From the NCBI GenBank assembly GCA_046758505.1, contig JBHIAH010000002.1, positions 59,312 through 123,311 on the forward strand: a DNA stretch of 64,000 bases. Direction: 5' to 3'. The stretch comes from Candidatus Methylomirabilales bacterium (lineage in GTDB: Bacteria; Methylomirabilota; Methylomirabilia; Methylomirabilales; CSP1-5). The position numbers and the translations under genes are program-made. A model generated the notes under the pieces. That model ran no database searches. It had not been told where the DNA came from and was given only the letters and a program-made list of their open reading frames with translations. This document shows, piece by piece, positions 29,434 through 54,737 of the stretch (positions within the stretch are counted from its first letter, which is position 1; each line of letters starts with the position of its first letter).

Positions 29434-30387
29434 CTACCTATCGGGTGTGAGAGTCAGGCAGAGCCACTCGTCGTCCGTTCGGCGGGCGATCACTCCGAAT
29501 CCCGAGGCCCGGGCCGTGGCGGCAACCCCCCTTGCCTCTTCTACCAGGATTCCCGAAGCAACCAGTCGGCCGCCCGCGGCAAGGTGGGTCAGGACGGCGC
29601 CGAATAATCCGCACAGGCCCTTCACATCCAGGTTCGCCAGGATCAGGTCGAAGCGCATCTCGGACCTGAGGGCCTCGACCCCCCCCTGCATGAGCTGGAC
29701 CCGACCCGCGACACCGTTCAGGACAAAGTTTTTCGTCGCGGCCCCGCACGCCTCGGCATCCGTATCGATGGCGACGACGCGCTCCGCCCCAAGGGCTGCC
29801 GCAGTGATCGCGAGGATGCCGGTTCCGGTCCCCACATCGAGCACCCCGGGTTTCCGGGGCCCCGCCCATTGCTCAATCAGGGCCTCCAGGGCTTCGAGGC
29901 ACATTCGCGTCGTGGCATGGTGGCCGGTTCCAAAACCCATCCCGGGGTCGATCCGGATGAGGAGCCGATCCTTCGGGAAGGGGCCAACCTCCCAGGGAGG
30001 CGCAATCACGAGACGCCTGCCGACCGGCAGCGGCGTAAAGTGCTCTTGCCAGGTTTTCCCCCAGTCCTCGGTCGGTATCTCGCGGACCGTGATCGGCCGC
30101 GCCTCCCCGCTGAGCCCGACGGCCTCGAGGGCCTCTTGGTATTGCGCCAGCCGCGCGACCGTCGGATCGATCACCACCCCCCCGGGGAAGCTTGCCCGGA
30201 TCACGATCCCCGGTCCCCCCGAGGGCGCGTCCTCCGTCAGGAGGCCGACCGCCCCCTCGGTGAAGAGGAAATCGGCCAGCGCCTCCGCGGTGTCGCCCGT
30301 CGCGACGACGGTTACCTCGATGTATCCCTCGCCCACCGTCCGCCTCCGAGCAAAACCGTTCCCGGTACCGACCGGCGATTCGGACAC
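29434..30387 (-). CDS. prmA: ribosomal protein L11 methyltransferase
   Basis: WGKTWQEHFTPLPVGRRLVIAPPWE, IRIDPGMGFGTGHHATTRMCLEALE and VLDVGTGTGILAITAAALGA. The start may be slightly downstream. Confidence 0.85.
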   Translation of the reverse strand: MSESPVGTGNGFARRRTVGEGYIEVTVVATGDTAEALADFLFTEGAVGLLTEDAPSGGPGIVIRASFPGGVVIDPTVARLAQYQEALEAVGLSGEARPITVREIPTEDWGKTWQEHFTPLPVGRRLVIAPPWEVGPFPKDRLLIRIDPGMGFGTGHHATTRMCLEALEALIEQWAGPRKPGVLDVGTGTGILAITAAALGAERVVAIDTDAEACGAATKNFVLNGVAGRVQLMQGGVEALRSEMRFDLILANLDVKGLCGLFGAVLTHLAAGGRLVASGILVEEARGVAATARASGFGVIARRTDDEWLCLTLTPDR

Positions 30388-30400
30388 GGGTCCACGAAGG

Positions 30401-30946
30401 CTAACCGGTGAAGCCCTCGTCCAGTTCGACGCCGAGGCCGTCGGCCACCCGATCCTGGTGGTTGAAGAAGCCGGCGATCAACGTCAGCGTGAGAATCTCT
30501 TCGTCCGAGAGCCCAGCGGCTCGTACTCGCTCAATGTCCTCACTCACGATCTTACTCGCATCCCGCGTGAGCCGTTCCGCGTGTTCGAGGATCACACGTG
30601 TCTTGCGGTCGAGAGCCGCTTGTCGGTAATCCTTCTTGATCTGGGCAGTCAGCTCATGACTGCGTGTCTCGCGACGGAGAAACTCTCCGTGAGCCTCTAT
30701 TCAATAATGGCAGTTGTTGAGCTTGGAGACTAGCACCGCGATCATTTCCCTCTGGGCCCGAGTGAGTCCGGACGGACCGAACATGAGGGTCTCGTAGAGC
30801 GGCTGCATGGCTTGCAGGACGTCAGGCCTGAGGCTGTAGACCTTCAGGATGTTGGGCACGAAGCCCATGCGCCCCTTGATCCCAGCGTAGAACTCGCCCA
30901 GTGCCCCTGTGGCTTCCTGCTCCTCGACTGTCTTGATCCACGCCAT
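30401..30946 (-). CDS. AhpD/carboxymuconolactone-decarboxylase family peroxidase-related protein with in-frame TGA (candidate selenocysteine) at 30701-30703
   Basis: Listed ORFs 30701..30946 and 30401..30595 are in the same frame, with no other stop between them. Read-through gives ...VSKLNNCHY-U-IEAHGEFLRR...LRAAGLSDEEILTLTLIAGFFNHQDRVADGLGV. The TGA occupies the second Cys of the family's C-x-Y-C-x-x-x-H redox motif. Total 181 aa, the usual size for this family. Confidence 0.7.
30668..30693 (-). promoter_or_regulatory. candidate bacterial SECIS hairpin
   Basis: On the mRNA: UGA, 7 nt (AUAGAGG), then CUC-ACGGAGA-GUU-UCUCCGU-(CGC bulge)-GAG. This is a 7+3 bp stem with a G/U-containing apical loop centred about 20 nt after the UGA. 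Confidence 0.5.
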
Positions 30947-31138
30947 TTCTCCCCCCTGTATGCGAAGACCTCCGCTGCTCGGTCACCCTCTCTGACGCGA
31001 CCCCATTCCGGGGCATCCCGCGATTCGCCAAAATGGTACAGCAGATCTCTGTTCGCGAAAACGACAAACGCAAGGGGGAAGGAAGGCTCGCAAGACAGGG
31101 AGGCTCTGGCGTTTCCTGGGGATCGGTGACTGGTCTTT

Positions 31139-32137
31139 CTACGACGCCAGACCGGCAACGGCCGCCAGCTCAGATGCCTCGGTGAATGCATGGGCGGCCA
31201 GCCACCGTTCGGCGTCAATCGCCGCCATCGCACCCGTGCCTGCAGCGGTGACCGCTTGCCGATACACATGGTCCTGGACATCACCGCAGGCAAAGACACC
31301 GGGCACGTTCGTATGGGTCGATCCAGGATGGATCACGATGTATCCCTGTTCGTCAAGCTCGACCCACCCCTCGAAGACATCCGTGTTCGGTTTGTGCCCG
31401 ATCGCGACAAACAGACCCTGCACGGGCAGGGTCGACGTCTTCCCGGTCTGCACATTCTTGAGCACGAGCCCCTCGACTTCGCGCTCCCCCAGCACATCGT
31501 GAACCACCGTGTTCCACACAAAGGTGATCTTCGCATTGGCCGAGGCGCGCTGTTGCATGAACCTCGAGGCACGCAATCGGCCACGCCGGTGTATGACATG
31601 CACCCGGGAGGCAAAGCGGGCAAGAAACAGGGCTTCTTCCATCGCGGCATCCCCTCCTCCGACAACGGCCACTTCCTGCCCGCGGAAGAACGCCCCGTCA
31701 CAGGTTGCACATGCCGAGACACCGCGCCCCAGGAGCCGCCGCTCGTTCTCCAGCCCAAGGTGCTTCGCAGATGCCCCCGTCGAAATGATCACCGCGTCAG
31801 CCAGCACCGGTTTCTCCCCCTCCACCAAGAGGCGAAACGGCCGCCGGGAAAAGTCAACCGCCGTCACCATACCGGAGCGGAGATCTGCGCCGAACCGGAC
31901 TGCTTGGGCTTCAAAATGCTGCATCAAGTCCGGTCCGAGGATGCCATCGGGAAAGCCCGGGTAGTTCTCGACCGCCGTCGTGGTGATGAGTTGGCCCCCC
32001 GGCTCCGGCCCCGAAAGTACCAGCGGATTGAGGTTGGCCCGCGCTGCATAGACTCCTGCTGTGAGACCGGCGGGACCGGTTCCGATGATCACTATCGACC
32101 GATGCTCGGCTTTGGAAAAATCTACATCGTTTCTCAC
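31139..32137 (-). CDS. trxB: thioredoxin-disulfide reductase
   Basis: VIIGTGPAGLTAGVYAAR, redox centre GVSACATCDGAFF, VVGGGDAAMEEALFL and GVFACGDV. Confidence 0.92.
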   Translation of the reverse strand: MRNDVDFSKAEHRSIVIIGTGPAGLTAGVYAARANLNPLVLSGPEPGGQLITTTAVENYPGFPDGILGPDLMQHFEAQAVRFGADLRSGMVTAVDFSRRPFRLLVEGEKPVLADAVIISTGASAKHLGLENERRLLGRGVSACATCDGAFFRGQEVAVVGGGDAAMEEALFLARFASRVHVIHRRGRLRASRFMQQRASANAKITFVWNTVVHDVLGEREVEGLVLKNVQTGKTSTLPVQGLFVAIGHKPNTDVFEGWVELDEQGYIVIHPGSTHTNVPGVFACGDVQDHVYRQAVTAAGTGAMAAIDAERWLAAHAFTEASELAAVAGLAS

Positions 32138-32155: not shown

Positions 32156-32497
32156 CTAGACCCGCTGGAGGATGGCGTCGAGCTTGTCGGCGAGCACCCT
32201 CTTTGGGACCACGCCGATGACCTGATCCACGACCCGGCCGTCCTCGAAAAACAGAAGTGCTGGAATGGACCGGATACCATACTGGGCAGCAATGCGAGGA
32301 TTGTGGTCCACGTTCACCTTGGCCACTTTAGCCTGGCCTTCAAAACCCGCCGCCAGCTCCTCGATCACCGGGGCGATCGCCCGGCACGGCCCGCACCAGC
32401 TCGCCCAGAAATCGACCAGAACGGGCGCAGAACTTTCAAGCACCTCGGTCTGGAAGTTCTCGTCGGTCAGTGTGATGTACCTCGTATTCTCCGCCAT
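32156..32497 (-). CDS. trxA: thioredoxin
   Basis: VLVDFWASWCGPCRAIAPVIEEL. ATG at 32497 has GGAGGA upstream. The listed start at 32527 adds 10 unlikely residues. Confidence 0.9.
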   Translation of the reverse strand: MAENTRYITLTDENFQTEVLESSAPVLVDFWASWCGPCRAIAPVIEELAAGFEGQAKVAKVNVDHNPRIAAQYGIRSIPALLFFEDGRVVDQVIGVVPKRVLADKLDAILQRV

Positions 32498-32692
32498 CGT
32501 CCTGTCCTCCGTTCCGCACCGAGACAAGGGTCGACCTTCTGGATCGACTATGCCAGATCTTCCCGTGTCGGTTCCGAGCCGACCTTGCCTCGTCGGTCAC
32601 GTCACACCATCGTTTATCTGAAATCATCGCTGGGGACAGAATTGCTCAACCCACACGGGATGAGCGTCCCCGCCCAAGACTGGCGGGCCCGA

Positions 32693-32848
32693 TCATGCAC
32701 GGCTCTTGCCCGTTCCACGAACTGGGGAGCCAGGCGTGCCCCTGAGAGACCTGGCCGTCTCATAGGCCCAGCTTCCCAGGAGCACAACGCTCAAGCTTCC
32801 GTAGAGAATGATGAAAGTCAGGATGAACATCGTATACCAGAGTTTCAT
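32693..32848 (-). CDS. hypothetical 51-aa single-pass membrane protein
   Basis: MKLWYTMFILTFIILYGSLSVVLLGSWAYETARSL..., with AAGGA upstream of the ATG at 32848. Embedded in a longer listed ORF (to 33157) whose upstream part looks non-coding. Confidence 0.35.
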   Translation of the reverse strand: MKLWYTMFILTFIILYGSLSVVLLGSWAYETARSLRGTPGSPVRGTGKSRA

Positions 32849-32894: not shown

Positions 32895-33167
32895 TTATGC
32901 AACGTCAGCGGTCGCGATCGCCTGCCCCGCCTTCCTCCAGGTCTGCCTCGTCTCCAGCAACTCCTCGTGGGGAGCAAACCGGCGGACGGTAAAGCCGCAC
33001 ACTGTACAGCGTTGATACACAAAAGGCCATCCATGTCCGTCTTGGACGCCACCCACCCGTCTGGTGGAAGATGAACAACATCGGCTGGGGGACGGGGGGG
33101 AGATAATCTTTGCCGGGTAGGCATTGACGGCTTTCCGCTGAGCGCTGTACTCCACAATGGTCGCCAT
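32895..33167 (-). CDS. hypothetical Cys-rich small protein
   Basis: ATG at 33167 is preceded by GGAGGG at 7 nt. MATIVEYSAQRKAVNAYPAKII...SRCC...WPFVYQRCTVCGFTVRRF has four Cys (CC ... CxxC), possibly metal-binding. Confidence 0.4.
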   Translation of the reverse strand: MATIVEYSAQRKAVNAYPAKIISPPSPSRCCSSSTRRVGGVQDGHGWPFVYQRCTVCGFTVRRFAPHEELLETRQTWRKAGQAIATADVA

Positions 33168-38902: not shown

Positions 38903-39907
38903 CTACGCGCGAAGCAGGGAGGCGCACCGTGCGGCTCCATAGAGTGCCGTCTTGGGGTCTAGGATAACGCGCACCGGCATGGCTTCGAGGAGCGGTGAGA
39001 GTCGGCCCTTGTCGGTAAAGGCCGCCATGAAGGTGCCGTCCTTGAGCTGATCGAGGATTTTGGGGGCGATGCCGCCACCGACATAGACCCCGCCCGTAGC
39101 CAAGGCCTTGAGCGCCAGGTTCCCCGCCTCCGCTCCATAGAGAGAGACGAAGAGATGGAGGGCCCTGACACAGAGATCGCTCTTCCCCTGCATGGCTGCC
39201 TCGGTGATGACCGTACTCGGATCCTGCCCTTGGAATTCCTCCACCAGCCAGGGTGGCTCCTGCGCATACCCCGCCTCCTTGAGAAACGAATAGATGTTGA
39301 AGATGCCGGGGCCGGAGAGGACCCGCTCGTAGCTCACCCGGTGAAACCGACTGAGCAGGTACTGCAGGAGCCTAATCTCCAGCGCGTTACGCGGGGCCAG
39401 GTCGGCGTGCCCCCCCTCCGAGGAGACCGCCCGGTACGCCTCCCCGTCCCAGAAGAGGATCGCCTCTCCTAGGCCCGTCCCGGCGGCGATCAAAGCCATG
39501 TTTCCCTGGGAGTGGGACTGTCCTTCGTTCAGGACACAAACCTCGTTGGGCCCAAGGACCGGGACCCCGTAGGCCGTGGCGACGAGATCGTTGATCACCG
39601 AAACCTGCTTGACTTCCAGGATGCGCCCCAGGTCCCGCTCATCGATCACCCAGGGCAGATTGGTCGCCTCGCAGCGCCCCTCAACCACCGGCCCGGCTAC
39701 TCCAAAGCAAGCGGCCGTGATGTGACCCTCGCTGCCTGGTGATGGGTGGCCTGTCGCTTCATCCAAGAATGCACGGATCAGCTCTTCGAGCCCCGGGTAG
39801 TCCTTGCTCGCCAAGGTTCGCTCGACGCGAGGCGAGAGGTGATCACCCCGCACGGTAAAAAGTGCGATATTGCTTTTCGTCCCCCCGATGTCGCCTGCAA
39901 GAATCAT
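38903..39907 (-). CDS. glk: glucokinase
   Basis: MILAGDIGGTKSNIALF..., AACFGVAGPV, and GGVYVGGGIAPKIL. Its ATG overlaps the pgl TGA (ATGA at 39904-39907). Confidence 0.88.
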   Translation of the reverse strand: MILAGDIGGTKSNIALFTVRGDHLSPRVERTLASKDYPGLEELIRAFLDEATGHPSPGSEGHITAACFGVAGPVVEGRCEATNLPWVIDERDLGRILEVKQVSVINDLVATAYGVPVLGPNEVCVLNEGQSHSQGNMALIAAGTGLGEAILFWDGEAYRAVSSEGGHADLAPRNALEIRLLQYLLSRFHRVSYERVLSGPGIFNIYSFLKEAGYAQEPPWLVEEFQGQDPSTVITEAAMQGKSDLCVRALHLFVSLYGAEAGNLALKALATGGVYVGGGIAPKILDQLKDGTFMAAFTDKGRLSPLLEAMPVRVILDPKTALYGAARCASLLRA

Positions 39908-40674
39908 GTCTCCCGTGCTCCGGGAAGGGTAAGTTCTTTCGCAGCCGCACGATCAACAATGAACCAGAGCTTCCCACTCACCGGCTGAATACGCTGTGCC
40001 GGCAACCGCTCTGGCCCGCGCTTGTCCCCAAGCACCCCTCTCAACACCGACGCCTTGGCCTCTCCCGCGACCACGAACACCACGCTGGCCGCGCGATTGA
40101 TCACGGGTACGGTCAGCGTGAGACGGACTGTGCCGTGCTGCTCCACATCTGTGCTGGCGACCAGACGCTCGGTCTCGGCCAGCGCTGCCGTCCCCGGGAA
40201 AAGCGATGCCGTATGCCCATCCTGGCCCAGCCCCAGCAAGATCAGGTCGAAACGCGGGAACTCGCCGACATCCACCTCAAAGAACGCCCTGAGGGTCGTC
40301 TCATACTCGGCGCCTGCCCGGGCGGGATCCTCGTCCTCGGCGGGCATCCGGTGCACGTTGTGCTGCGGAATCGGGACCCGGTCGAGCAGGAGCTCCCGCA
40401 CCATGCGATAGTTGCTCTCCGGATGGTCCGGCGGGACGCACCGCTCATCCCCCCAGAAGAGATGCACCCTCGACCAAGACACCTGCGGCCGAAATTGATC
40501 GCCCGCCAACAGGGTATAAAGCCCCTTCGGGGTTGCGCCACCCGAGAGTGCCACTGTGAAGCGCCCCGACGACGAGACGGCGGTGTCAGCCAGTCGAACG
40601 AACAACTCCGCTGCGCGGCGGCTCATCTCGTGCAGATCGCGGCACACCAGAAGTTCGGTTCGTCCCCCTCTCAT
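39904..40674 (-). CDS. pgl: 6-phosphogluconolactonase
   Basis: FTVALSGGATPKGLYTLL, VHLFWGDERCVPPDHPESNY, and ILLGLGQDGHTASLFPG. ATG at 40674 chosen. The listed TTG start at 40722 abuts the opcA stop. Confidence 0.88.
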   Translation of the reverse strand: MRGGRTELLVCRDLHEMSRRAAELFVRLADTAVSSSGRFTVALSGGATPKGLYTLLAGDQFRPQVSWSRVHLFWGDERCVPPDHPESNYRMVRELLLDRVPIPQHNVHRMPAEDEDPARAGAEYETTLRAFFEVDVGEFPRFDLILLGLGQDGHTASLFPGTAALAETERLVASTDVEQHGTVRLTLTVPVINRAASVVFVVAGEAKASVLRGVLGDKRGPERLPAQRIQPVSGKLWFIVDRAAAKELTLPGARET

Positions 40675-40726
40675 TGTGCGCCACGGCGGGGTCCAAGACA
40701 CCCTAGTCCGACTCCCCCCCAACTCC

Positions 40727-41875
40727 TCATTTCACCATTCGCAATCCTGAAAGAAACTCGAGCGCCTGCTCGTAGAGGGCGTCGCGACCGAGCATTTCCA
40801 GCTCGGTGCTGATGAGCTCCGCTTCGGTCTGGCCGCCGAGCCGAAAAACATTCCCGGGCAGCCTCTTCCCGGCCACCTCGACATCGGACCGCAAGTACGC
40901 GCCGTCCGCACTGCGCGAAACCCCGAACCGCACCGGCGGCCCGTCCTCGGCGATCAGGGTGAGTGCGCTCAGCCCGACGTGGGCGCCTTGCGTAGCAGGC
41001 ACGACCGTGACTTGGAGCGTAATCGGAACGGTTGCTGATACGAACTCACACCAAAGCGTCTGGTTGTCGTTCTGGCGGGACACCGACGTCGGCCGCCATC
41101 CCAGACGACTGGCCAGCCAGCATGCGATCAGGAGGGCCTGGCTGGGAATCGAGCAACGCTCGGCGTCATCCTGCCTGTACCGGATCTCCACACGGCTCAG
41201 CCGCCTGAGATAGGCACGCCATTCGGGGGCATCAAAGAGCCCGGCAACCGACGCACGCCACGGAGTGAGTCTGGACCAACTCAGGTCGCTGAACGCGGTC
41301 CGCTCCGCCGTCTGACCGATGAGCGTTCTCAGGCCAGCGAGACCGCGCTCGGCATCCGGAAACCTCTCCGAGTCAATAATCACGCGGTCGGAGGTTTTCA
41401 GCAGCTCGCCAAACAGACGAGACTCACACCTGGGAATATCACGCCACCACAAGACAACGGGAAGATCGTGCACGAGCAGCGACCGGATCATGCTGGGTAC
41501 CTGGCTCACCCCTTCGCCTTCGGCCGCGATCTTGATCTGCTCGCAGCAGATCTGTTTCCGCGCGCCGGCTGCCAGGTGACACTGGGCCGTCACCCAGGCG
41601 TCCAGGCGGGGCCCGGTCGCCTCAGAGTTGGACAGCACGACAATGATGCGACTGGGATGCTGGATGGTCACCTCAGCCATGATCTCGCCCACCTCACCAT
41701 TGCCCTGCTCGCCGGGCGCGTACGCGATCACATTCAGGACGCACACCCGCATCACCGGCTGCTGGCCTTCCCCATCGGCCGACTCAGCCATCTGCTTCCA
41801 GAGCTGCTGCAGGTCGTGCTCGATTTGCTGGGCGTTTGTGCTCATCGCGTCGGGAGATTCGTGCTCCCATCCCAC
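40727..41875 (-). CDS. opcA: glucose-6-phosphate dehydrogenase assembly protein OpcA
   Basis: Position immediately after zwf. IEHDLQQLWKQ...VMRVCVLNVIAY and HPSRIIVVL are typical OpcA N-terminal blocks. The start could be the ATG at 41845 instead of the GTG at 41875. Confidence 0.75.
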   Translation of the reverse strand: MGWEHESPDAMSTNAQQIEHDLQQLWKQMAESADGEGQQPVMRVCVLNVIAYAPGEQGNGEVGEIMAEVTIQHPSRIIVVLSNSEATGPRLDAWVTAQCHLAAGARKQICCEQIKIAAEGEGVSQVPSMIRSLLVHDLPVVLWWRDIPRCESRLFGELLKTSDRVIIDSERFPDAERGLAGLRTLIGQTAERTAFSDLSWSRLTPWRASVAGLFDAPEWRAYLRRLSRVEIRYRQDDAERCSIPSQALLIACWLASRLGWRPTSVSRQNDNQTLWCEFVSATVPITLQVTVVPATQGAHVGLSALTLIAEDGPPVRFGVSRSADGAYLRSDVEVAGKRLPGNVFRLGGQTEAELISTELEMLGRDALYEQALEFLSGLRMVK

Positions 41876-41915
41876 GTGCGTTCTCTGGTCCCTTCCTGCC
41901 TTTTTGCTCTCCGCA

Positions 41916-43454
41916 CTACGGAATCCTCCACCGGCGGCCGTCTCGTTCGATCAGTTCGGCCGCCACCTTCGGCCCCCAGGTCCCAGCTTCGTAGTTGGGG
42001 AAACTCATGGCCGATCGCTGCCACGCCTCGAGAATGGGCATCGCCAGCTCCCAGGCGACTTCGACCATGTCGCCCCTGGCGAACAGGGTGGAATCCCCCA
42101 CCATGCCATCCAGCAAGAGCCGCTCGTACGCCTCAGGCAACTTCCTGCCAAACGAGGTCCCATAATGAAAATCCATCGTGACCGGCCGGATATGAAATGT
42201 CTGGCCCGGCATCTTGGCACTGAATTTGAGCGAGATACCTTCGTCCGGCTGAATCCGCACGATGAGGGCATTGGGTTCCAAAGGGCCACTCCTCGTGTGT
42301 TTGAATAAGAGATGCGGGGCGCGCCGAAACTGGATGGCCACCTCAGTGACTCGCTTGGGCAACCGCTTGCCGGTCCGGAGGTAGAATGGGACGTCGGCCC
42401 AGCGCCAGTTGTCGATGAGCAGCTTCACCGCGGCATAGGTCTCGGTGTTCGATCCAGGGCTCACGCCCTCTTCATCTCGGTATCCCCGGACTGGCTGCCC
42501 CCCCACGGATCCCGCACCATACTGGCCGCACACCGCGAAGTGCCCCACCTCCTCGGCCGTGATGGGGCGGATCGCCCGCACCAGTTTCGTCTTTTCGTCG
42601 CGGACAGCGTTGGCCTCCATGGCCGCCAGGGGTTCCATTGCGACGTGCGCCAGCACCTGGAGGAGGTGATTCTGAATCATATCCCGGAACGCCCCCGCCT
42701 GTTCGTAATATCCGCCGCGACCCTCGACGCCAATACTTTCGGCCGCGCTGATTTGCACGTGGTCGATGTAGCGCCGATTCCAGATCGGCTCGAAGATCCC
42801 GTTGGCGAACCGTAGCACCATGATGTTTTGCACGGTTTCCTTACCCAGGTAGTGATCGATGCGGTAGATCTGATCCTCCGCGAAGACCGCCAGCACCTCC
42901 CGGTTCAACGCCCGGGCCGTTTCGAGATCCTGACCGAATGGTTTCTCAATGATGACACGGGTCCAGCCTCCGTTGGACGAGCGATTCAACCCCGTGACGC
43001 CAATCAGCTGGATGATCTGACGGTAGAGGCTCGGGGGCGTTGAGATATAAAATAATCGATTGCCACCGGTTCCCCGTTCGCGGTCGATTTGGGCCAACAA
43101 CTCGGTCAGCGCGGCGTAGCTCTCCGGCCTTGTGGAGTCGGTCGGCGTGTAGAAGAGCCCAGCGGCGAAACTCTCCCAGACAGCGCTATCGGTGGCAGCG
43201 GCGTTGGAGAAACGATCGACGGCAACGCGCATCTCAGCTCGAAAGGTCTCGTGGTTCATCGGAGTTCGCCCGGTGCCCACGATGGAAAACCCACCGGCCA
43301 GGAGATTCTGCTGAGCCAAACGGTACAGGGCGGGGACGAGCTTCCGTTTCGTCAAGTCTCCGGAGGCGCCAAAGATGACGACCACGCAGGGCTCCGCGGT
43401 GCGGTCTACGCGCAAGCCCTCGCGCAATGGATTTTCAAATACCGCTGCGTCCAT
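41916..43454 (-). CDS. zwf: glucose-6-phosphate 1-dehydrogenase
   Basis: VIFGASGDLTKRKLVPALYRL, active-site RIDHYLGKE, and WRWADVPFYLRTGKRL. Confidence 0.93.
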   Translation of the reverse strand: MDAAVFENPLREGLRVDRTAEPCVVVIFGASGDLTKRKLVPALYRLAQQNLLAGGFSIVGTGRTPMNHETFRAEMRVAVDRFSNAAATDSAVWESFAAGLFYTPTDSTRPESYAALTELLAQIDRERGTGGNRLFYISTPPSLYRQIIQLIGVTGLNRSSNGGWTRVIIEKPFGQDLETARALNREVLAVFAEDQIYRIDHYLGKETVQNIMVLRFANGIFEPIWNRRYIDHVQISAAESIGVEGRGGYYEQAGAFRDMIQNHLLQVLAHVAMEPLAAMEANAVRDEKTKLVRAIRPITAEEVGHFAVCGQYGAGSVGGQPVRGYRDEEGVSPGSNTETYAAVKLLIDNWRWADVPFYLRTGKRLPKRVTEVAIQFRRAPHLLFKHTRSGPLEPNALIVRIQPDEGISLKFSAKMPGQTFHIRPVTMDFHYGTSFGRKLPEAYERLLLDGMVGDSTLFARGDMVEVAWELAMPILEAWQRSAMSFPNYEAGTWGPKVAAELIERDGRRWRIP

Positions 43455-43496
43455 CCTCCACGCCCTTGCCGGTCGTCGCCAGGGGGCATCGGGCAG

Positions 43497-44990
43497 TCAG
43501 TCCGACGTCACCGGCGACTCTCCAGTGAGACCGACCCAATCCGTATGTATCGGGCCCTGCTCGGGTTTGTCCGTGCGCTCGTACAGATGAGCACCAAAGA
43601 AATCCCGCTGGGCCTGTGTCAGGTTCTGCGGAAGATTCGCCGTCCGATAGGTATCAAAGTAGGCCAGGCTGGCCGACATCGCCATGAGCGGGATGCCCAG
43701 GCTCTGGCCGACCGCGACGGTTTGGCGCCACCGCGGCTGCGCCTCGGTCACCCATGCCGCAAAGTCGGGGTCCAGCAGCACGTTGGGCAAGTCGGGCCGG
43801 CTCCGAAATGCCTGTTTGATTTTATCCAGAAACTGCGCCCGGATGATGCACCCCCCCTTCCAGATGCGGCTCAACTCGCCGAGATCAATGCCCCATCGGT
43901 ATGCCTGCGAGCCCGCACGGATGAGCGCCATCCCCTGCGCGTACGAGCAGATCTTGCTCGCATACAGTGCATCGTGAACACCGGTAATCAATTCCTGGCG
44001 GTCACCGGTAAAGCGCGCCTGCTGCGGACCGGCGATCTGTCGACTGGCGTTCACCCGTTCCGCCTTGGCATGGGAGAGCATGCGGGCTTCAATGGCTGCG
44101 TGGATCGTGGGGATGGGGACGCCGAGCTCGAGCCCAATCGCCGAGGTCCACCGACCCGTCCCCTTCTCACCTGCTGCGTCGAGGATCAGATCGACCAAAG
44201 GCTTTCCGGTCTCTTCATCCGTAACCGTGAAAATCTTCGCGGTGATCTCAATCAGATACGAGTTGAGCATGCCCGCGTTCCACTCGGCAAAGATGTCGCC
44301 CAGCTGGTTGGCCCCGAGGCCCAAAGCGTGGCGCAGAATATCGTACGCCTCGGCAATGAGCTGCATGTCACCGTATTCGATGCCGTTGTGAACCATCTTG
44401 ACGAAATGGCCCGCCCCGTCGGGGCCGATATACGTGACACAGGGGCCGTCATCGACCTGGGCCGCGATGGCCTCGAAGACGGGGCGAATTTCCTCGTAGG
44501 CTTCCCGCGTGCCGCCGGGCATCAATGAGGGTCCCCATCGCGCCCCCGTTTCGCCCCCCGAGACACCCGTGCCAACGAAGCGAAGGCCGTCGACCGCCAT
44601 GTCTTTCTCGCGGCGCTGCGTATCCTGAAAGCGGGAGTTCCCGCCATCAATGATGATGTCGCCTTTTTCGAGATACGGCTTCACCTGGTCGATCGTCCAG
44701 TCCACCGGGGCGCCGGCCCGGATCATCATCATGATCTTGCGTGGTCGCGCGAGGGCACCAACGAAGTCCTGAATCGATGTCGTGCCAATTACCCGTTTCC
44801 CATGGGCCTTTCTCTGCACGAACTCATCGACCCATTCGGGTTCACGATTCCACACGACGACCGGATACCCGTTGCGCTCGACGTTCAGGGCGAGGTTCTG
44901 TCCCATCACCCCGAGTCCAATGATTCCAAATGCGGCCGTTCCGCGTTTTGCGCCGGCTGCCGACATCTCTGTCACCCTCTTGTCGGACAC
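43497..44990 (-). CDS. gnd: 6-phosphogluconate dehydrogenase (decarboxylating)
   Basis: FGIIGLGVMGQNLALNVERNGY, IIDGGNS, GTGVSGGETGAR and IIRAQFL. An alternative ATG at 44966 would remove the 19-nt overlap with tal-pgi. Confidence 0.92.
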   Translation of the reverse strand: MSDKRVTEMSAAGAKRGTAAFGIIGLGVMGQNLALNVERNGYPVVVWNREPEWVDEFVQRKAHGKRVIGTTSIQDFVGALARPRKIMMMIRAGAPVDWTIDQVKPYLEKGDIIIDGGNSRFQDTQRREKDMAVDGLRFVGTGVSGGETGARWGPSLMPGGTREAYEEIRPVFEAIAAQVDDGPCVTYIGPDGAGHFVKMVHNGIEYGDMQLIAEAYDILRHALGLGANQLGDIFAEWNAGMLNSYLIEITAKIFTVTDEETGKPLVDLILDAAGEKGTGRWTSAIGLELGVPIPTIHAAIEARMLSHAKAERVNASRQIAGPQQARFTGDRQELITGVHDALYASKICSYAQGMALIRAGSQAYRWGIDLGELSRIWKGGCIIRAQFLDKIKQAFRSRPDLPNVLLDPDFAAWVTEAQPRWRQTVAVGQSLGIPLMAMSASLAYFDTYRTANLPQNLTQAQRDFFGAHLYERTDKPEQGPIHTDWVGLTGESPVTSD

Positions 44991-47860
44991 GGTGGCTGCT
45001 CCGGCAGCGCCTCCCGCACGGCGCCGAGCAGCGTGGTTAATCCGGCCTCGACATCCTGCCCCAGGTGGACGCGAATCGCCCGCCGATGACGGTTCGAAAG
45101 CGACTGAAAGTCCCCGAGGGCCTGGGCCTTCTTCAGCACGCCAAAGGTGTACGGCTCGGCGGGAATCGGAAGATCCACGGCGTCATCAGCCGTGATCTGA
45201 ATGAAGACCCCGCGATCGGGGCCCCCCTTGTGCAGCTGGCCCGTGGAGTGCAGGAAGCGGGGCCCGTAGCCGACCGTTGTCGCCGTCTTGAGTGTGTCGC
45301 GAATGTGTATGCGGATTGCCTGCAACAGGGCTTCGTGCGCCGCCGTCTCCTGGATATAGGCCGTCAACGCGACGTAATCGCCGGCCCCAACCCGGGCTAA
45401 GTGTGCCCGTACAGCGGCAGCCAGCGATCCCGTCACCCCCTGAAGCGCCGTCCGCGTCCCTGCGTCGCCATAGATGCGGCATCCGTCCCCCTCGATGACC
45501 ATGTCCTCCTCGGGAAGTCTCCCCGTCGTGCGGTACACCTCCAGCAGATGCGTCGTATTGTCCTTACTCTCCTGCACGTTGGGCTGGTCGAAGGCGTTAA
45601 TGCCCAGCAGCGCCCCGGCCAGCGCTGTGGCGATCTCCCAGAGGAAGAACTCTCGCCCGAGACTCAACGTATCCCGCATTACGTGGCGGACCACCGGGTG
45701 CCCCTCGCGCTCCAGGGCCTTGAGTTGAGGCTCGGTCTCCGCCCCCGACGCGTCACGCGTGGCGATGTGTACAAATACCCGATCGTTGCCATACACGCGG
45801 GGACTCCCGAGCGATTCGCCAGCCACCGGCAGGATGCCTCGGCCTTCCTTGCCCGTGCTTTCGGCGATCAGCTGCTCGACCCACAAACCGAGCGAATCAA
45901 TCGGAGGAAGCGTGAGAAGCGTGACCTTATCCCGCCCTTGCCTGGCCAGTTCGCCGAGGATTGCGCCGAGCCGCGCACCCGGGTTTTTGTCTGTCGGGAC
46001 ACAGCCGTCGCACGCTTCGGCCGCATCGACGGTCCGCTCCAGCAGTTCTCTCACATCCACTCCCATGAGCGCCGCCGGCACCAAACCGAAGTACGACAGC
46101 GCCGAGTAGCGCCCCCCGATGTCGGCCGGATTCAGGAAGACCCGTCGGAACTGCTGCTGCCGACCGATCGCCTCCAGGGGGGTGCCCGGGTCGGTGATGG
46201 CGATGAACTGCGCGCCGGGCCGACCGGCCTTCACCTGCGAGACCTTTTCGAAAAAATACTGGTAGAACATCAGCGGCTCGGTCGTCGTGCCCGACTTGCT
46301 GGCAACGATGAAAAGGGTCGTGGCGATATCCACCGCACGCTCCATCCACCTGACCGTCGCCGGATCAGTGCTATCCAACACCCAAAGCTGTGGATACCCC
46401 TCGACCCGCCCGAATGTCCGTCGGAAGACTTCGGGACACAAGCTGCTCCCGCCCATCCCGAGGAGCATGACGGACTGGAAACCGTCGTTGCGAACGCGCT
46501 CGGCAAAGCCCCGCAACTCGTCGGTCTGTTCCAGCATGGTCTCGGCCACCGTCAACCAGCCCAGGGCGTTCCGAATGACCCTCTGGTGGGCGGGATCGTC
46601 TTTCCACAGCGTCGGATCCTTTCGCCACAGGCGGCGGAGGAATTGCTGCTCAGCCATCCGGTGGATCGTCTTGTCCACCGCCGACGCGTACGTGCCGAGA
46701 CTGACGGGCTGGCGTTCCACGATGCTGCTCATGCTCGCGTCTCGCCTGTGTTCAATGGCCTTCAGCAGCTTTTCGAATGGTACGGCGAATGCCGTGACAC
46801 CCGCCTCGAGCAGCTGTGCCGTCACCTCACGGAGACTGATGCCGACCTCCGCGAGGGTGGCCAGTGTCTGGTGCGCACCCTCGAGGTCCTCTTCGAGCGT
46901 GAGCCGCACCCGCCCGTGATCACGAAACGCCGCGAACGTGGCCGGCGGCACCGTGTTGACCGTATCGGGGCCGATGAGTGATTCGACATACAGCACATCG
47001 CTGTAGTTCGGGTTCTTGGTCCCTGTCGAGGCCCACAGCGGTCGTTGCACGCGCCCCCCCTTGGCGTGCAGGGCGCGAAACCGCTCGCTGCCGAAAATCT
47101 CTGTGAACTTCTGATAGGCCAGCTTGGCATTGGCGGTTGCCACCTTTCCCAAGAGTGCAGACAGCGTCGCCTGCTCCGTATCGTCCGTCGAGCGCCGGAT
47201 ACGAGACTCCAACGCATTATCAACAGCCGTGTCAATCCGACTCACAAAGAAGCTGGCGACGGATGCAATGTGATCCAGGGGTTTCCCTTCGACCGCGCGG
47301 CGCTCCAGGCCCATGAGGTACGCGTTGGCCACCTGCGTGTAAACCTCCCGAGAGAAAATCAGTGTGACGTTGATGTTGATGCCGGCTGCAATGAGCTGCT
47401 CGATAGCCGGCAGCCCCTCGGGCGTCGCCGGGACCTTGATCATCACGTTGCTCCGGTCGAGGCGTTTCCACAACCGCGTGGCTTCGGAAACGGTCCCCGC
47501 CGTATCATGAGCCAGGCGTGGCGAGACTTCCAGGCTCACAAAGCCATCCCCGCCCTTGGTCCTCTCGTAGACAGGCCGGAAAAGATCGGCCGCCATCTGG
47601 ATATCCTCGACGACCAACGCCTCATACATCTCGTCGACGCTCTTCCCCTGCACCGCAAGCCTGCGGAGGGCATCATTGTAATCGGTACTGCCGTCGATGG
47701 CCTTCTCAAAAATGGCCGGATTGGAGGTCACGCCCCGGAGGTCATCCTCCTCGATCATTCGCTGCAAGTCACCCGTAACGATCAGGGCCCGGCGAATGTT
47801 GTCATACCACACACTCTGCCCATGCTTCCCCAGCTCTACGAGTGGATTCGAAGCCACCAT
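44972..47860 (-). CDS. tal: bifunctional transaldolase / glucose-6-phosphate isomerase fusion
   Basis: N-terminal transaldolase (GQSVWYDNIRR...LRGVTSNPAIFEKAI...NVMIKVPAT). C-terminal PGI domain (VMLLGMGGSSLCPEV, ASKSGTTTEP, GGRYSALS). 962 aa. Confidence 0.9.
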   Translation of the reverse strand: MVASNPLVELGKHGQSVWYDNIRRALIVTGDLQRMIEEDDLRGVTSNPAIFEKAIDGSTDYNDALRRLAVQGKSVDEMYEALVVEDIQMAADLFRPVYERTKGGDGFVSLEVSPRLAHDTAGTVSEATRLWKRLDRSNVMIKVPATPEGLPAIEQLIAAGININVTLIFSREVYTQVANAYLMGLERRAVEGKPLDHIASVASFFVSRIDTAVDNALESRIRRSTDDTEQATLSALLGKVATANAKLAYQKFTEIFGSERFRALHAKGGRVQRPLWASTGTKNPNYSDVLYVESLIGPDTVNTVPPATFAAFRDHGRVRLTLEEDLEGAHQTLATLAEVGISLREVTAQLLEAGVTAFAVPFEKLLKAIEHRRDASMSSIVERQPVSLGTYASAVDKTIHRMAEQQFLRRLWRKDPTLWKDDPAHQRVIRNALGWLTVAETMLEQTDELRGFAERVRNDGFQSVMLLGMGGSSLCPEVFRRTFGRVEGYPQLWVLDSTDPATVRWMERAVDIATTLFIVASKSGTTTEPLMFYQYFFEKVSQVKAGRPGAQFIAITDPGTPLEAIGRQQQFRRVFLNPADIGGRYSALSYFGLVPAALMGVDVRELLERTVDAAEACDGCVPTDKNPGARLGAILGELARQGRDKVTLLTLPPIDSLGLWVEQLIAESTGKEGRGILPVAGESLGSPRVYGNDRVFVHIATRDASGAETEPQLKALEREGHPVVRHVMRDTLSLGREFFLWEIATALAGALLGINAFDQPNVQESKDNTTHLLEVYRTTGRLPEEDMVIEGDGCRIYGDAGTRTALQGVTGSLAAAVRAHLARVGAGDYVALTAYIQETAAHEALLQAIRIHIRDTLKTATTVGYGPRFLHSTGQLHKGGPDRGVFIQITADDAVDLPIPAEPYTFGVLKKAQALGDFQSLSNRHRRAIRVHLGQDVEAGLTTLLGAVREALPEQPPCPTRG

Positions 47861-47883
47861 GCCCCCCTTCTGTCTTTTCGCAG

Positions 47884-48330
47884 TTACGTGTCTCGTTCTA
47901 AGTCCATTACTTTCTCGAGCCGGCGGCGATGCCGCTCGGCGCCGGAGAAGCGCGCGGCCAGGAAGGTACGGACCACCTCTTCTGCCAGCTGGGGACCAAT
48001 CACCCGAGGGCCCAGACAGAGCACGTTCGCGTCATCGTCCTCACGACTTTGACGAGCCGAGAACGTATCATGGCACAGCGCCGCACGAATACCCCGGATC
48101 TTGTTCGCCGCGATGCTGGCCCCCACACCGCTCCCGCACAAGAGCACACCGACATCGGCCTTGCGGTTCCTCAGGGCCTCCCCCACGGCCCGCGCATGGT
48201 CGGGGTAATCGGTCGGGTCTGCGTTATGCGCTCCGAGGTCCACAACGGCATGCCCTTCCCCCTTCAGCCACTCGATGATGAGACCCTTCATCGAGAATCC
48301 TGCGTGATCCGCTCCAACGGCGATCCGCAT
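47884..48330 (-). CDS. rpiB: ribose-5-phosphate isomerase B
   Basis: MRIAVGADHAGFSMKGLIIEWLKGEGHAVVDLG, and GVLLCGSGVGASIAANKIRGIRAA. Confidence 0.92.
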   Translation of the reverse strand: MRIAVGADHAGFSMKGLIIEWLKGEGHAVVDLGAHNADPTDYPDHARAVGEALRNRKADVGVLLCGSGVGASIAANKIRGIRAALCHDTFSARQSREDDDANVLCLGPRVIGPQLAEEVVRTFLAARFSGAERHRRRLEKVMDLERDT

Positions 48331-48470
48331 GCTCGCCTCCTGGCCTCGCTAGTGCTTCGATTTGCAAATACTGTGACGTATGCCGACAGGTATGTTGAAC
48401 ACCTTTGCTCGCCCGGAACGAAGTCGTGTCTGAATACGTGCGCCATCGCATTTATAAACAAACCGAAGGA

Positions 48471-50519
48471 CTAGCCTTGTTCCATCGATCCCACCGGCTG
48501 GCCGGCCAGCAGGGCCTTTGCCGCGGCGACCACGTCCGCCGTCGTAAACCCGAAATGCTCGAGGAGGTCCTTGAGCGGGGCCGACGCGCCGAAATGCCGC
48601 CGGGCGATAACCGCGCCGTCAATTCCGACATACCGACGCCAGCCAAGCGACGAGCCAGCCTCCACTGCCAGGCGCTTTCGAACCGAGGGTGGCAGCACAT
48701 GCTCACGATACGCCTGCGGCTGTGCCTCAAACAGTTCGTAAGACGCCATGTTGACGACTCGGGCCCCGACCCCCTCCGCCCTCAACCGCTCATACGCCTC
48801 TACACACCACTGCACCTCCGATCCGGAGGCGATCAAAACGATCTCGGGTGTGCCGTCGCTGTCGGCAAGCACGTAGCCCCCTTTCCGCAATTCTGACGCC
48901 GGAGCATATTTGGTCCGGTCCAGGGTCGGCAGAGCCTGCCGGCTAAGGATGAGTGCGACCGGGCGATGCCTCTGCTCCATGATGACCCGCCACGCCTCGG
49001 AGACCTCGTTGGCATCCGCCGGGCGGATCACAAGCAACTCCGGAATGGCCCGGAGTGAAACCAGATGTTCCACGGGCTGGTGCGTCGGCCCATCCTCACC
49101 GACGCCAATACTATCATGCGTGAAGATGCAGGTCACCGGGAGCTCCATGAGGGCCGACAGTCGCAAGGCCGGTCGAAGATAGTCGGAAAAAATCAGAAAG
49201 CCCGAGCCAAAGGGTCGGATCTTGCAGAGCGTCATGCCATTGAGAATCGCCCCCATGGCATGCTCCCGGATACCAAAATGGAAATTCCGCCCCCCATAGG
49301 ACCCTTTCTGGAAATCACCGCCGTCGACGATGCGCGTCTTGGTGGAGGGCGCGAGGTCCGCCGAGCCGCCAATGAGCCAGGGAACGTGGCCAGCAATCGC
49401 GTTGAGCACCTTTCCGCCGGCCTCGCGGCCGGCCAGGCCCTTGCGGTCAGCGGGAAATGACGGGATGTCGCGGTCCCAACCCTCTGGCAATTGCCCGCCT
49501 TGCATCAGCCTCCACTCCGCCGCCAGGTCTGGATGGGCCTCGACGTACGCCGCGAGCCGCTGGTTCCACTCTTCCTCCCACCGGTGACCGCGTTCGACTG
49601 CCTGGTGCATGTGCGCGGCCACTTCATCGGGCACCAGGAACTGCGCATCGGGAGGCCAGCCGTACCGCCGCTTGGTCAGCCGGATCTCTTCCTCCCCCAG
49701 CGGCTCGCCGTGCGCCCCCGACGTGTCCTGCTTGGTGGGAGCCCCGTAGGCAATATGGCTGTCCACGATGATGAGTGATGGGCGGTCGGTCTCCTTCTGC
49801 GCCGTCGCGATGGCCCGATCGAGCAACTCGAGATCGTTGGCATCCCCGACCCGCTGGACATTCCACTGAAGCGCCATGAAGCGGGCGGCCACGTCCTCGG
49901 AGAATGCCAGTGCCGTGTTGCCCTCGATGGTGATGTGATTGTTATCGTAGATCCAGATCAGCTTATGGAGCCCGAGATGTCCCGCCAACGAGGCGGCCTC
50001 CGACGAGAGACCTTCCATGAGGTCGCCGTCGCCGCAGATGGCGTAGGTGCGAAAGTCCACGATTGCGTGCCCGGGCCGATTGAAGTGTGCAGCGAGCCAT
50101 CGCTCGGCGATAGCCATGCCGACGCTGTTGGCCACGCCTTGCCCGAGGGGGCCGGTCGTCGTCTCGACGCCGGGGGTCAGTCCGTACTCCGGATGCCCGG
50201 GGCACCGGCTATCCCACTGGCGGAACTTTTTGATCTCTTCGAGCGTCAGATCATATCCCGTCAAGTGCAGCAGGCTATACAGCAGCATCGAGGCATGACC
50301 GGCCGAGAGCACGAAGCGGTCCCGGTTCGGCCAGTCCGGATGCTGCGGATGATGCCGGAGGTACCGGTCCCACAAGACGTACGCCACAGGCGCCAGGGCC
50401 ATCGGCGTCCCGGGATGACCCGACTTCGCCCTCTGCACGGCGTCCATCGACAACGTGCGGATGGTGTTGATGCACATCTGATCGAGTGTGTCATGCGTTT
50501 CCGCTCCTGTTGACGGCAT
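48471..50519 (-). CDS. tkt: transketolase
   Basis: [47 protein letters not shown] and [17 protein letters not shown]. Start chosen at the second of two ATGs, 5 nt after GGAGG. The listed ORF to 50699 is an over-extension. Confidence 0.92.
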
Positions 50520-50887
50520 CATTGCCTCCTCATCTTCTCCCACGGGACCATGCACGGAATCCCCTACATTTAGATGCAACTTCATGGGCGCGAGGTTCAC
50601 CTCCCCCCCGGAACGCACCCTCTGCGCACGCGCCGCGCGCAAGCCCCCCTCCGCTACCCCAACCGTGCCATACTGGAGCCCCGGGGCAACCATAATCACC
50701 TTACCCCGCCGCCGGGACAGGACCGAAAGACTCTACACCCATGCTCCTTCTTTTGGGGTAGCCGAGTGACCACCGGAAAGAAGATGTCCACGAGATCCCA
50801 AGAACGTTGAACCCGATGAGAAGCCCCGATCAAGCCTTACGATGGCCGCAGGTGGAAGGTTCCGGGCTTCCCAATCCCGCCGCAGCC

Positions 50888-52407: not shown

Positions 52408-52896
52408 ATGCCCAGGGCCCTGAAGATCATCCCCGAAAAGTGCACCGGATGCATGCAGTGTGAACTGGCCTGCTCCTGGGTGCAGACCGGGACCTTCCGC
52501 CCGTCGCGTTCGGTCATTCGGGTGAACGTCTTTGATGAGCAGGCGAGCTATGCCCCTTACACCTGTTTTCAGTGTGAGGAGGCCTGGTGCATGACCGCCT
52601 GCCCGGTCAACGCGATCGCGATCAATCCCGATACGGGCGCCAAGGTCGTCCTGGAGAAGGTCTGCGTGGGGTGCAGCCTGTGTGTCATCGCGTGTCCCTT
52701 CGGGACCATCTTCTGGAATCCCGACACCCACAAGGCCTTCAAGTGCAACCTGTGCGACGCCGACCCGGCCTGCGCCCGGGCCTGCCCGACCGGGGCGATC
52801 GAGTTTGCTGAGCTGCCGGCCGCCGACTGGGTGGGGCCATGGGCGGAGCGACTCAACACCGGGTACCTCGAGGCCCTCGCAGGAGGTGAGGCGTGA
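52408..52896 (+). CDS. 4x[4Fe-4S] ferredoxin-type electron-transfer subunit of aldehyde oxidoreductase (AorA-like)
   Basis: Four Cys clusters: CTGCMQCELAC, CFQCEEAWCMTACP, CVGCSLCVIACP and CNLCDADPACARACP. GGAGGGGAGGAAAGCC precedes the ATG at 52408. Stop overlaps the next GTG. Confidence 0.85.
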   Translation: MPRALKIIPEKCTGCMQCELACSWVQTGTFRPSRSVIRVNVFDEQASYAPYTCFQCEEAWCMTACPVNAIAINPDTGAKVVLEKVCVGCSLCVIACPFGTIFWNPDTHKAFKCNLCDADPACARACPTGAIEFAELPAADWVGPWAERLNTGYLEALAGGEA

Positions 52897-54737
52897 TCTA
52901 CGGCTGGAGCGGGACCATCCTCCGGGTCGATCTGACCCACGGCATCATCACGAAGGAACCCCTGAACCGGCAGTGGGCCCGCGATTACGTCGGCGGGCGG
53001 GGGCTGGGGGCCAAATACCTGTATGCGGAGATGGACCCGACCGTGGATCCCCTGGGCCCGGACAACACCCTGATCTTTGCCACCGGTCCCCTCACCGGGA
53101 CCAACGCCTCGTGCGGGGCCCGGTACATGGTGGTGACCAAGGGAGCCCTGACCAACACGATCACCACCTCCAATTCGGGTGGGCACTGGGGACCGGAGCT
53201 GAAGTTCGCCGGCTACGACATGGTCATCCTCGAGGGACGGGCCGCCCGACCCTCTTATCTGTGGATTTATGACGATCAGGTCGAGATCCGACCGGCGGAT
53301 CACCTGCAGGGGAAAACCGTCTGGGACACAGAGGATCTCATCCGGCAGGAGCTGGGGATTCCCGACGCCATCGTCGCCTGCATCGGTCCCGCGGGCGAGA
53401 AGCTGGTGAAGTTTGCCTGCATCATGAATGACAAGCACCGGGCCGCGGGCCGCTCCGGAGTCGGAGCGGTCATGGGGTCCAAGAACCTGAAGGCCATCGC
53501 CGTTCGCGGAACGAAGGGGGTTCGCATCGCCCACCCCGAGGCCTTCATGAAGGCCGTCTGGGCCGCGAAGGCCAAGCTTCGAGCCTCGCCGACGACAGGT
53601 CAGGGCCTCGCCACGTACGGGACCGCCGTCCTCGTCAACGTCATCAACGAGCACGGGGCCTTCCCTACCAACAACCATCAGCTCGCCCAACTGAAAGGGG
53701 CCGACAAGCTGAGCGGCGAGACCCTGACCGAAACCCGCCTCGTAGCCAACAAGGCGTGCTTCGCCTGTACCATCGCCTGCGGGCGGGTTTCCAAGCTTCC
53801 CGAAGACGCCGCGGGCAAACTCCCGGTGACGACCCATCCCCATAACTGGCGGATCGCAGCGGAGGGCCCGGAGTACGAAAACATCTGGGCTCTCGGGGCG
53901 GACTGCGGTGTCACCGATCTGGACGCCGTCATCAAGGCGAATTTCCTTTGCAACGAGCTGGGGATGGATCCGATTTCGATGGGGGCGACCCTGGCCGCCG
54001 CCATGGAACTGTACGAGAAGGGACATGTCAATCTGGGGCACACGGGGGTCCCGCTCACCTTTGGCAGCGGCGAGGCGTTGGTGGCCATGGTGGAGCAGAC
54101 TGCCTACCGGGAGGGTTTCGGCGGGGAGCTCGCCGAGGGATCCAAGCGGCTCGGCGCAAAGTTCGGCGCCCCCCAGTTTTTCATGGGGGTGAAGGGCCAG
54201 GAATTTCCCGCGTACGACAGTCGAGCGATCCAGGGGATGGGGCTCGGGTACGCCACGTCGAACCGGGGCGCCTGCCATTTGAAGGCGTACACCGTCGCTC
54301 CCGAGATCCTGGGCACGCCCAAAAAGATGGACCCGACGACGACCGAGGGGAAGGCGGGGATCACCAAGCTCATGCAGGACGTCACAGCGTCGGTCGACGC
54401 CACGGGATTGTGTCTGTTCCTGACCTTCGGGATCGGTCTCGAGGACATCCTGCCGCAACTCGCGGCGGGAACCGGCATCCCCTACACGATGGAGAGCATC
54501 CTCCAGGCGGGAGAGCGGATCTGGAACCTCGAGCGGATCTGGAACCAGAAGGCCGGCTTCAGCGGCACGGACGATACCCTGCCCACACGGATCCTCCAAG
54601 AGCCGATCCCCAGCGGGCCAAGCAAGGGGCGGGTAAACCGTCTGCACGAGATGCTTCCCGAGTACTACCAACTCCGGGGCTGGACCCCTGATGGCCAGCC
54701 CTCAGCTCAAAAATTGATCGAACTGGGCCTCCTGTAG
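52893..54737 (+). CDS. aor: tungsten-dependent aldehyde:ferredoxin oxidoreductase (AOR family catalytic subunit)
   Basis: GWSGTILRVDLTHGIITKEPL..., YVGGRGLGAKYLY, SNSGGHWG, and KNLKAIAVRG. Confidence 0.9.
   Translation: MIYGWSGTILRVDLTHGIITKEPLNRQWARDYVGGRGLGAKYLYAEMDPTVDPLGPDNTLIFATGPLTGTNASCGARYMVVTKGALTNTITTSNSGGHWGPELKFAGYDMVILEGRAARPSYLWIYDDQVEIRPADHLQGKTVWDTEDLIRQELGIPDAIVACIGPAGEKLVKFACIMNDKHRAAGRSGVGAVMGSKNLKAIAVRGTKGVRIAHPEAFMKAVWAAKAKLRASPTTGQGLATYGTAVLVNVINEHGAFPTNNHQLAQLKGADKLSGETLTETRLVANKACFACTIACGRVSKLPEDAAGKLPVTTHPHNWRIAAEGPEYENIWALGADCGVTDLDAVIKANFLCNELGMDPISMGATLAAAMELYEKGHVNLGHTGVPLTFGSGEALVAMVEQTAYREGFGGELAEGSKRLGAKFGAPQFFMGVKGQEFPAYDSRAIQGMGLGYATSNRGACHLKAYTVAPEILGTPKKMDPTTTEGKAGITKLMQDVTASVDATGLCLFLTFGIGLEDILPQLAAGTGIPYTMESILQAGERIWNLERIWNQKAGFSGTDDTLPTRILQEPIPSGPSKGRVNRLHEMLPEYYQLRGWTPDGQPSAQKLIELGLL

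Follow-up and report, generated by a model that had tools for sequence, protein, structure and literature searches.

Genes at the locus

The window, that is, the whole stretch of 64,000 nucleotides that was analysed, carries on its minus strand an AhpD-like gene (30401..30946), which matches the TIGR01926 'peroxidase-related enzyme' model and runs over 181 codons from the ATG at 30946..30944 to the TAG at 30403..30401. Codon 82 of this gene is a UGA (30701..30703, minus strand), which in the alignment of homologues stands in place of the second Cys of the CxxC motif and is predicted to be read as Sec (U82). Inspection of the sequence finds a purine-rich, Shine-Dalgarno-like run, GGGGGGAG, close upstream of the ATG (30949..30956, minus strand), and folding, together with the register shared with relatives, places a SECIS-like hairpin after the UGA at 30668..30693 on the same strand.

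The AhpD-like gene is preceded by trxA (32527..32156, minus strand; TIGR01068, 124.5 bits) and trxB (32137..31139, minus strand; TIGR01292, 395.9 bits), and the gap between trxB and the start of the AhpD-like gene is 192 nt long (30947..31138), where no terminator-like site was found. The prmA gene (29434..30387, minus strand; TIGR00406, 183.7 bits against a cut-off of 183.15) lies 13 nt downstream of the AhpD-like gene and is probably co-transcribed with it. The TrxB encoded in the window is 100% identical to MFQ5846267.1, a protein from a Candidatus Methylomirabilales MAG. Upstream of trxA, two small ORFs at 32898-33167 and 32756-32848, both on the minus strand and with no Pfam match on record, are about 77% conserved with NC10 relatives; one has 90 aa and is Cys-rich (…SRCCSSS…CTVCGF…), and the other has 51 aa and is hydrophobic.

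Elsewhere, the window consists largely of two metabolic clusters. One (982-22826) is a glycogen/trehalose cluster with TreT, GlgE, a TreY-like protein, a GlgX-like protein, TreZ, GlgB, MalQ, a TreS-maltokinase fusion and GlgC, and the other (38903-50699) is an oxidative pentose phosphate cluster with glk, pgl, opcA, zwf, gnd, a tal-pgi fusion and tkt. Between the two clusters are genes for GlgP, CorA and a Kef-type transporter. A 700-aa ORF without a Pfam match is found at 52569-54671 on the minus strand, and overlaps a 614-aa ORF at 52893-54737 on the plus strand.

Reading frame and the in-frame UGA

Translation of the minus-strand frame from 30946 to 30401 meets a single internal stop, the TGA at codon 82, in the context SKLNNCHY*IEAHGEF, and the 99 codons that follow contain no further stop or frameshift. 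The homologues in the alignment begin with M-A-W-I-K, and so does the AhpD-like gene. A sequence-only reading of this DNA had joined two ORFs, 30701..30946 and 30401..30595, into one protein of 181 aa with the motif C-H-Y-[TGA]-I-E-A-H; the mechanical ORF list contains both, in one frame, and the joined frame translates as described, with codon 82 as its sole internal stop. A crude scan of the window for ORF-TGA-ORF junctions returned many matches, an abundance that is typical for GC-rich DNA, and the junction at 30703 is the only one with a redox motif.

The record for this gene holds only the 81-aa N-terminal fragment given by gene callers. Such a fragment would also be the product of a pseudogene or split gene, in which a nonsense mutation ends the protein after 81 residues, and the ORF behind it is either defunct or translated as a product of its own from the GTG at 30595. 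In that second form the product would be devoid of the whole catalytic motif, and the uninterrupted 99 codons, which keep all the residues invariant in the family (see below), speak against decay of the downstream part.

Another reading would be an error of sequencing or assembly at a codon that is really TGC or TGT and encodes Cys, since one base separates either from TGA and the source is a metagenome-assembled genome. The TGA and its flanks are, against this, identical in two more, independent Logan assemblies from different runs, SRR29324609 and SRR29324601, one of which was seen in 3 samples, and an error of this kind is considered very unlikely. Two Logan contigs, L084 (end 6637) and L085 (end 6148), have the same last base, which falls within the hairpin at about position 30679 of the window (...CACGGAGAGTTTCTC); the inverted repeat may possibly break the assembly graph at this point.

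Family and catalytic residues

Profile scores were computed with Cys substituted at the TGA. The AhpD-like protein scores 149.8 bits with NCBIfam TIGR01926 (cut-off 81.8), where residues 2-174 align to model positions 1-174 of 178, and 44.4 bits with both the TIGR00778 core domain (cut-off 27.8) and Pfam CMD (cut-off 23), so that the earlier assignment to the AhpD/CMD family, with a conserved core, is borne out by three models. AhpD proper (TIGR00777) was rejected, with 19.6 bits against a cut-off of 191.95, as was membership in NF041238, with 71.7 bits against a cut-off of 175 and a match to model positions 151-337 only. None of the window ORFs scanned with Pfam and NCBIfam was identified as an ahpC-type gene.

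The catalytic relay is encoded at 30689..30748 on the minus strand and is built by five residues: Glu67 (30748..30746), Cys79 (30712..30710), Tyr81, Sec82 (predicted) and His86 (30691..30689), with the spacing E-x11-C-x-Y-[C/U]-x3-H. Glu67 and Tyr81 are invariant in the alignment of homologues and His86 is conserved in at least 90% of them. The family-invariant residues Thr127, Asp148, Ile151, Arg166, Leu171 and Gly172 are all downstream of the TGA and are all present. The proton relay is formed by Glu36, Cys48, Tyr50, Cys51 and His55 in Pseudomonas aeruginosa PA0269, and by Glu118, Cys130, His132, Cys133 and His137 in Mycobacterium tuberculosis AhpD (PMC3141380). Both have the same spacing as the AhpD-like protein of the window. 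We take Cys133 to be the nucleophilic Cys of the M. tuberculosis enzyme and, if this is so, Sec would hold the attacking position in the AhpD-like protein.

The solved relatives 2PFX (CFYCLVAHG) and 3C1L (CYYCLTAHG) match the protein with E values of about 1e-31, which is enough to establish its fold, and the second Cys of their CxxC motif aligns with the TGA. That the TGA replaces this second Cys had been proposed before, and Cys is indeed what occupies the column in 2PFX, in 3C1L and in the Cys-type homologues.

The UGA column across relatives

In the protein search about 120 relatives were found at full length, with 180-187 aa, and the column of the UGA holds Cys in many of them and 'W' in the closest ones. 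At the DNA level, a scan with one genome per species found 596 relatives, the closest of them at 54%, and the best 80 loci were kept. The codon at the UGA column of these best 80 loci is TGA in 65, TGC or TGT in 14 and GGC in 1, and three further metagenome contigs also have TGA there; the check recommended by the sequence-only reading, whether homologues place Cys or Sec in this column, thus came out in favour of its proposal. The TGA carriers among the best 80 loci belong, by their record titles, to about 13 phylum-level groups, which include Acidobacteriota, Poribacteria, Chloroflexota, Gemmatimonadota, Planctomycetota, Firmicutes, Myxococcota, Marinimicrobia, Cloacimonadota and Bacteroidota. 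Selenocysteine is typically recognised by just this pattern, a TGA that recurs in alignment with Cys and is flanked by conserved coding sequence. The same distribution weighs against a nonsense mutation, which would have to coincide with the same column in 65 of the best 80 related loci from many phyla, and against a sequencing error, since TGA is the majority state of the column in relatives.

The 'W' found in public protein sets at the homologous codon could be taken as a sign of readthrough of the UGA without selenium, either by an alternative code in which TGA means Trp or Gly, or by near-cognate or Cys insertion at codon 82. The DNA behind three of these proteins, P0001, P0002 and P0005 (loci L001-L003), has an in-frame TGA in all three; W at the Sec position is also found in P0006, P0014, P0016, P0018, P0020 and P0030, so that three of nine such proteins were examined at the DNA level. 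The W appears in this column because short contigs were translated with a table in which TGA is Trp (code 4), and is an artefact of gene calling: in P0002 a second TGA near the C-terminus is also read through. The column is otherwise Cys, not Trp. Furthermore, TGA is the ordinary stop of 13 of the 32 annotated genes of the window, among them gnd, tal-pgi, glgX and treS-mak, which rules out an alternative code, and the GC content of 60-66% is unlike that of the low-GC lineages known to use code 4 or 25. Selenium-free readthrough is for these reasons regarded as very improbable.

The hairpin downstream of the UGA

The core of the hairpin is a stem of 7 bp between ACGGAGA (30690..30684) and UCUCCGU (30680..30674), closed by the apical loop GUU (30683..30681), and three outer pairs join CUC (30693..30691) with GAG (30670..30668) across a CGC bulge. 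The distance from the UGA is 7 nt to the start of the hairpin and 17 nt to its apical loop, and the hairpin is located within the coding sequence at codons 86-91. The folding energy is -8.4 kcal/mol for the core stem and -9.7 kcal/mol for the extended form. For the 71-nt segment that contains the hairpin, the z-score is -1.68, and equally good folding is seen in 11 of 200 shuffled sequences; taken alone, the hairpin does not go beyond chance, and its weight comes only from the comparison with relatives.

In this comparison 68 TGA genes and 16 non-TGA genes were anchored on the codon in a gap-free manner, and two main registers of the hairpin were found. Type A, which includes the window, has its stem at offsets 13-18 and 24-29 from the U of the UGA and a loop of 3-5 nt, and is present in 39 genes. 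Type B has its stem at offsets 20-26 and 33-39 and an invariant loop start, CGGG, and is present in 18 genes, mainly from Poribacteria and Thermoanaerobaculia. The loop is about 17-20 nt from the UGA in type A, with the sequence NGGNN or AGUUU, and 24 nt from it in type B; about 11 of the 68 TGA genes have shifted variants of the hairpin. A hairpin of type A or B occurs in 57 of the 68 TGA genes and in 2 of the 16 non-TGA (Cys or Gly) genes (Fisher p = 1.2e-7), a contrast that could partly reflect divergence, since the non-TGA controls tend to be more distant relatives.

In the type-A register, 81.9% of the cells of the stem are paired across the 68 TGA genes, compared with 28-51% when the 3' partner is slid, and one pair shows a GC-to-CG double change in 13 genes. 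Where the 5' arm encodes Gly (GGN), 31 genes use CUC and one uses CUU as the Leu codon of the 3' arm, and where the 5' arm encodes Ala (GCN), 6 of 7 use CUG (Fisher p = 2.5e-6 for the association of the Leu codon with Gly or Ala). Since these Leu codons are synonymous, a choice that follows the opposite arm indicates that selection acts on the RNA structure and not on the protein. The stem-loop CUC-ACGGAGA-GUU-UCUCCGU-bulge-GAG is therefore present as had been described from the sequence, and it is also conserved and covarying in relatives. A covarying hairpin that goes specifically with TGA genes is not what a pseudogene would keep, and beside a Cys codon misread as TGA its conservation would lack a reason. 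With these observations the pseudogene reading becomes highly unlikely.

The window has some features of its own. The G at offset 20 in the loop, found in 37 of the 39 type-A genes, is present in the window. At 3 nt, the GUU loop of the window is shorter than NGGNN, the 5-nt loop that most relatives have; GUU/AGUUU is a minority variant, which is shared with L021, L033 and L058. An alternative type B pairing with 6 of 7 pairs is also possible in the window sequence. Searches with Rfam gave no SECIS-type match, either over the whole window at gathering thresholds or over 30560..30800 at E <= 10. To our knowledge, Rfam has no bacterial SECIS model, and this null result is then probably uninformative. 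The hairpin lies just 3' of the UGA and has a small, G-containing loop, in keeping with bSECIS elements. [quoted passage not shown]

Gene neighbourhood in NC10 relatives

The thiol redox neighbourhood that had been suggested from trxB and trxA holds as adjacency, with both genes upstream on the same strand, and finds support within the Methylomirabilales/NC10 lineage only: in the best 80 related loci, which come from other lineages, neither TrxB nor TrxA is encoded within about 4 kb. These 80 loci share no neighbours beyond close relatives, either in tblastn searches with TrxB, TrxA, PrmA, Hsp20 and GlgP or in an all-against-all clustering of ORFs. One large cluster of flanking ORFs among them was rejected, being an antisense ORF of the AhpD-like gene itself.

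Three NC10/Methylomirabilales relatives, L087-L089, whose TrxB proteins are 80-83% identical to that of the window, have a Prx-like (AhpC-TSA) gene directly after trxA-trxB, in the order trxA-trxB-prx(U)-htrA-prmA-hsp20. The Prx-like gene has itself an in-frame TGA in LLFYRGEW-[TGA]-P/H-Y-C (W-U-x-Y-C), which is at 4227 in L087 and L088, where the gene spans 4101-4574, and at 2166 in L089, where it spans 2040-2516. A small hairpin, UCAGC-AGUUA/G-GCUGA, follows this TGA, and the gene has been called in three ways: split in two in L087, as one product of 157 aa in L088 and not called in L089.

Right behind the stop codon of the Prx-like gene, at 4592-4645 of L087 and L088, is a stretch of about 55 nt with some 90% identity to the end of the AhpD-like gene on its 3' side (window 30401-30460, minus strand; translation DRVADGLGIELDEAFTG); no such relic was found in L089. 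This stretch looks like a relic of an AhpD-like gene, displaced in the relatives by prx (and htrA), and its position behind prx suggests an in-place replacement of one selenoprotein by another. A redox selenoprotein is, as far as these predictions go, consistently found in the slot after trxA-trxB within the lineage, which gives modest, lineage-specific support for a link to thioredoxin. That the slot between trxA-trxB and prmA in Methylomirabilales/NC10 is an exchangeable site for Trx-dependent selenoproteins, in which one displaces another, is a further idea that we hold to be rather unlikely.

Proposed selenocysteine decoding

The reading that we prefer, with a probability of roughly 0.92, is that 30946..30401 is one intact, Sec-decoded gene of 181 residues for an AhpD-like/TIGR01926 selenoprotein, as judged from the sequence and its relatives. 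On this reading, ribosomes would decode the UGA at codon 82 as Sec, and the hairpin on its 3' side would bind SelB carrying Sec-tRNA(Sec). With Sec at the position of the second CxxC cysteine, the redox centre would alternate between the selenol/thiol and the selenenylsulfide forms. The most likely role, as predicted, is that of a thiol-dependent reductase or a peroxidase-type antioxidant enzyme, and recycling by the TrxA/TrxB pair encoded just upstream is plausible. Sec insertion, the presence of selABCD in the genome, the substrate and the thioredoxin link are all points that we infer.

As regards the organism, ARAGORN found tRNA-Asp and tRNA-Val and no tRNA-Sec in the 64-kb window, and Pfam and NCBIfam scans of about 35 long ORFs of the window found no selA, selB or selD. 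This negative result for the window is a point on which the pseudogene reading can draw. Methylomirabilota are described as heavy users of Sec, with one MAG that has 63 predicted selenoprotein genes (2026 review, PMC13188914), and Sec-type hydrogenases are reported from this phylum (PMC13582414). Together with the TGA-containing Prx-like gene of the NC10 relatives, these reports give good indirect support for Sec machinery in the genome.

Comparison with known systems

Zhang, Fomenko and Gladyshev introduced the AhpD-like CxxU proteins (COG2128) as a new selenoprotein family in 2005, with 27 sequences from the Sargasso Sea (PMC1088965). 'AhpD-like 1' was later the fourth most abundant selenoprotein family in the GOS data, with 299 sequences (PMC2398784), and a 2026 review places AhpD-like selenoproteins under TIGR01926 (PMC13188914). 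The sequence-only reading had already pointed to a known selenoprotein family and had seen the novelty mainly in annotation, and the literature agrees on both points, the CxxU family of COG2128/TIGR01926 having been published since 2005. The gene of the window has no essential difference from this family (COG2128/YciW): it shares the TIGR01926 model, the CxxU motif with Sec in second position, the length of about 180 aa and a bacterial-type hairpin with a small, G-containing loop right after the UGA. Its particulars are the Methylomirabilales MAG in which it occurs, its place after trxA-trxB and the minority loop, GUU/AGUUU.

The structures 2PFX and 3C1L (Mlr4105), annotated as 'uncharacterized peroxidase-related protein / putative antioxidant defense protein', align residue for residue over the NxCxYC-x3-H motif and over about 150 residues, with Cys where the window has UGA; 6K40, 2OYO and 2PRR are further Cys-form structures of relatives. 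M. tuberculosis AhpD (TIGR00777) and PA0269 have the five-residue relay Glu/Cys/His-or-Tyr/Cys/His at a spacing identical to that of the window protein, which differs from them by the predicted Sec at the position of Cys133/Cys51 and by the lack of an adjacent ahpC. The NF041238 family (AhpD_rel_CFYUT, alkylhydroperoxidase-related (seleno)protein) also has CxxU in an AhpD-type domain, but its model of 357 positions is about twice as long as the protein described here. The SelB-binding SECIS of Escherichia coli fdhF is likewise a stem-loop within the coding sequence, directly after the UGA and with a small loop containing a G; its sequence is unrelated, two hairpin registers occur within the AhpD-like family, and SelB binding is in the present case only predicted.

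Meaning for annotation and for the organism

The main point of the gene concerns annotation, since standard gene calling splits or truncates it. In protein sets translated with code 4, Sec is written as Trp, which hides the Sec forms as CxxW and masks how common the Sec form is. What is known of AhpD-like selenoproteins in general is unchanged by this gene. If the slot after trxA-trxB were indeed exchangeable, the TIGR01926 selenoprotein would be a stand-alone peroxidase recycled by Trx and functionally interchangeable with a peroxiredoxin. Called correctly, the gene makes this Methylomirabilales MAG a likely user of Sec and would add one gene to its selenoproteome.
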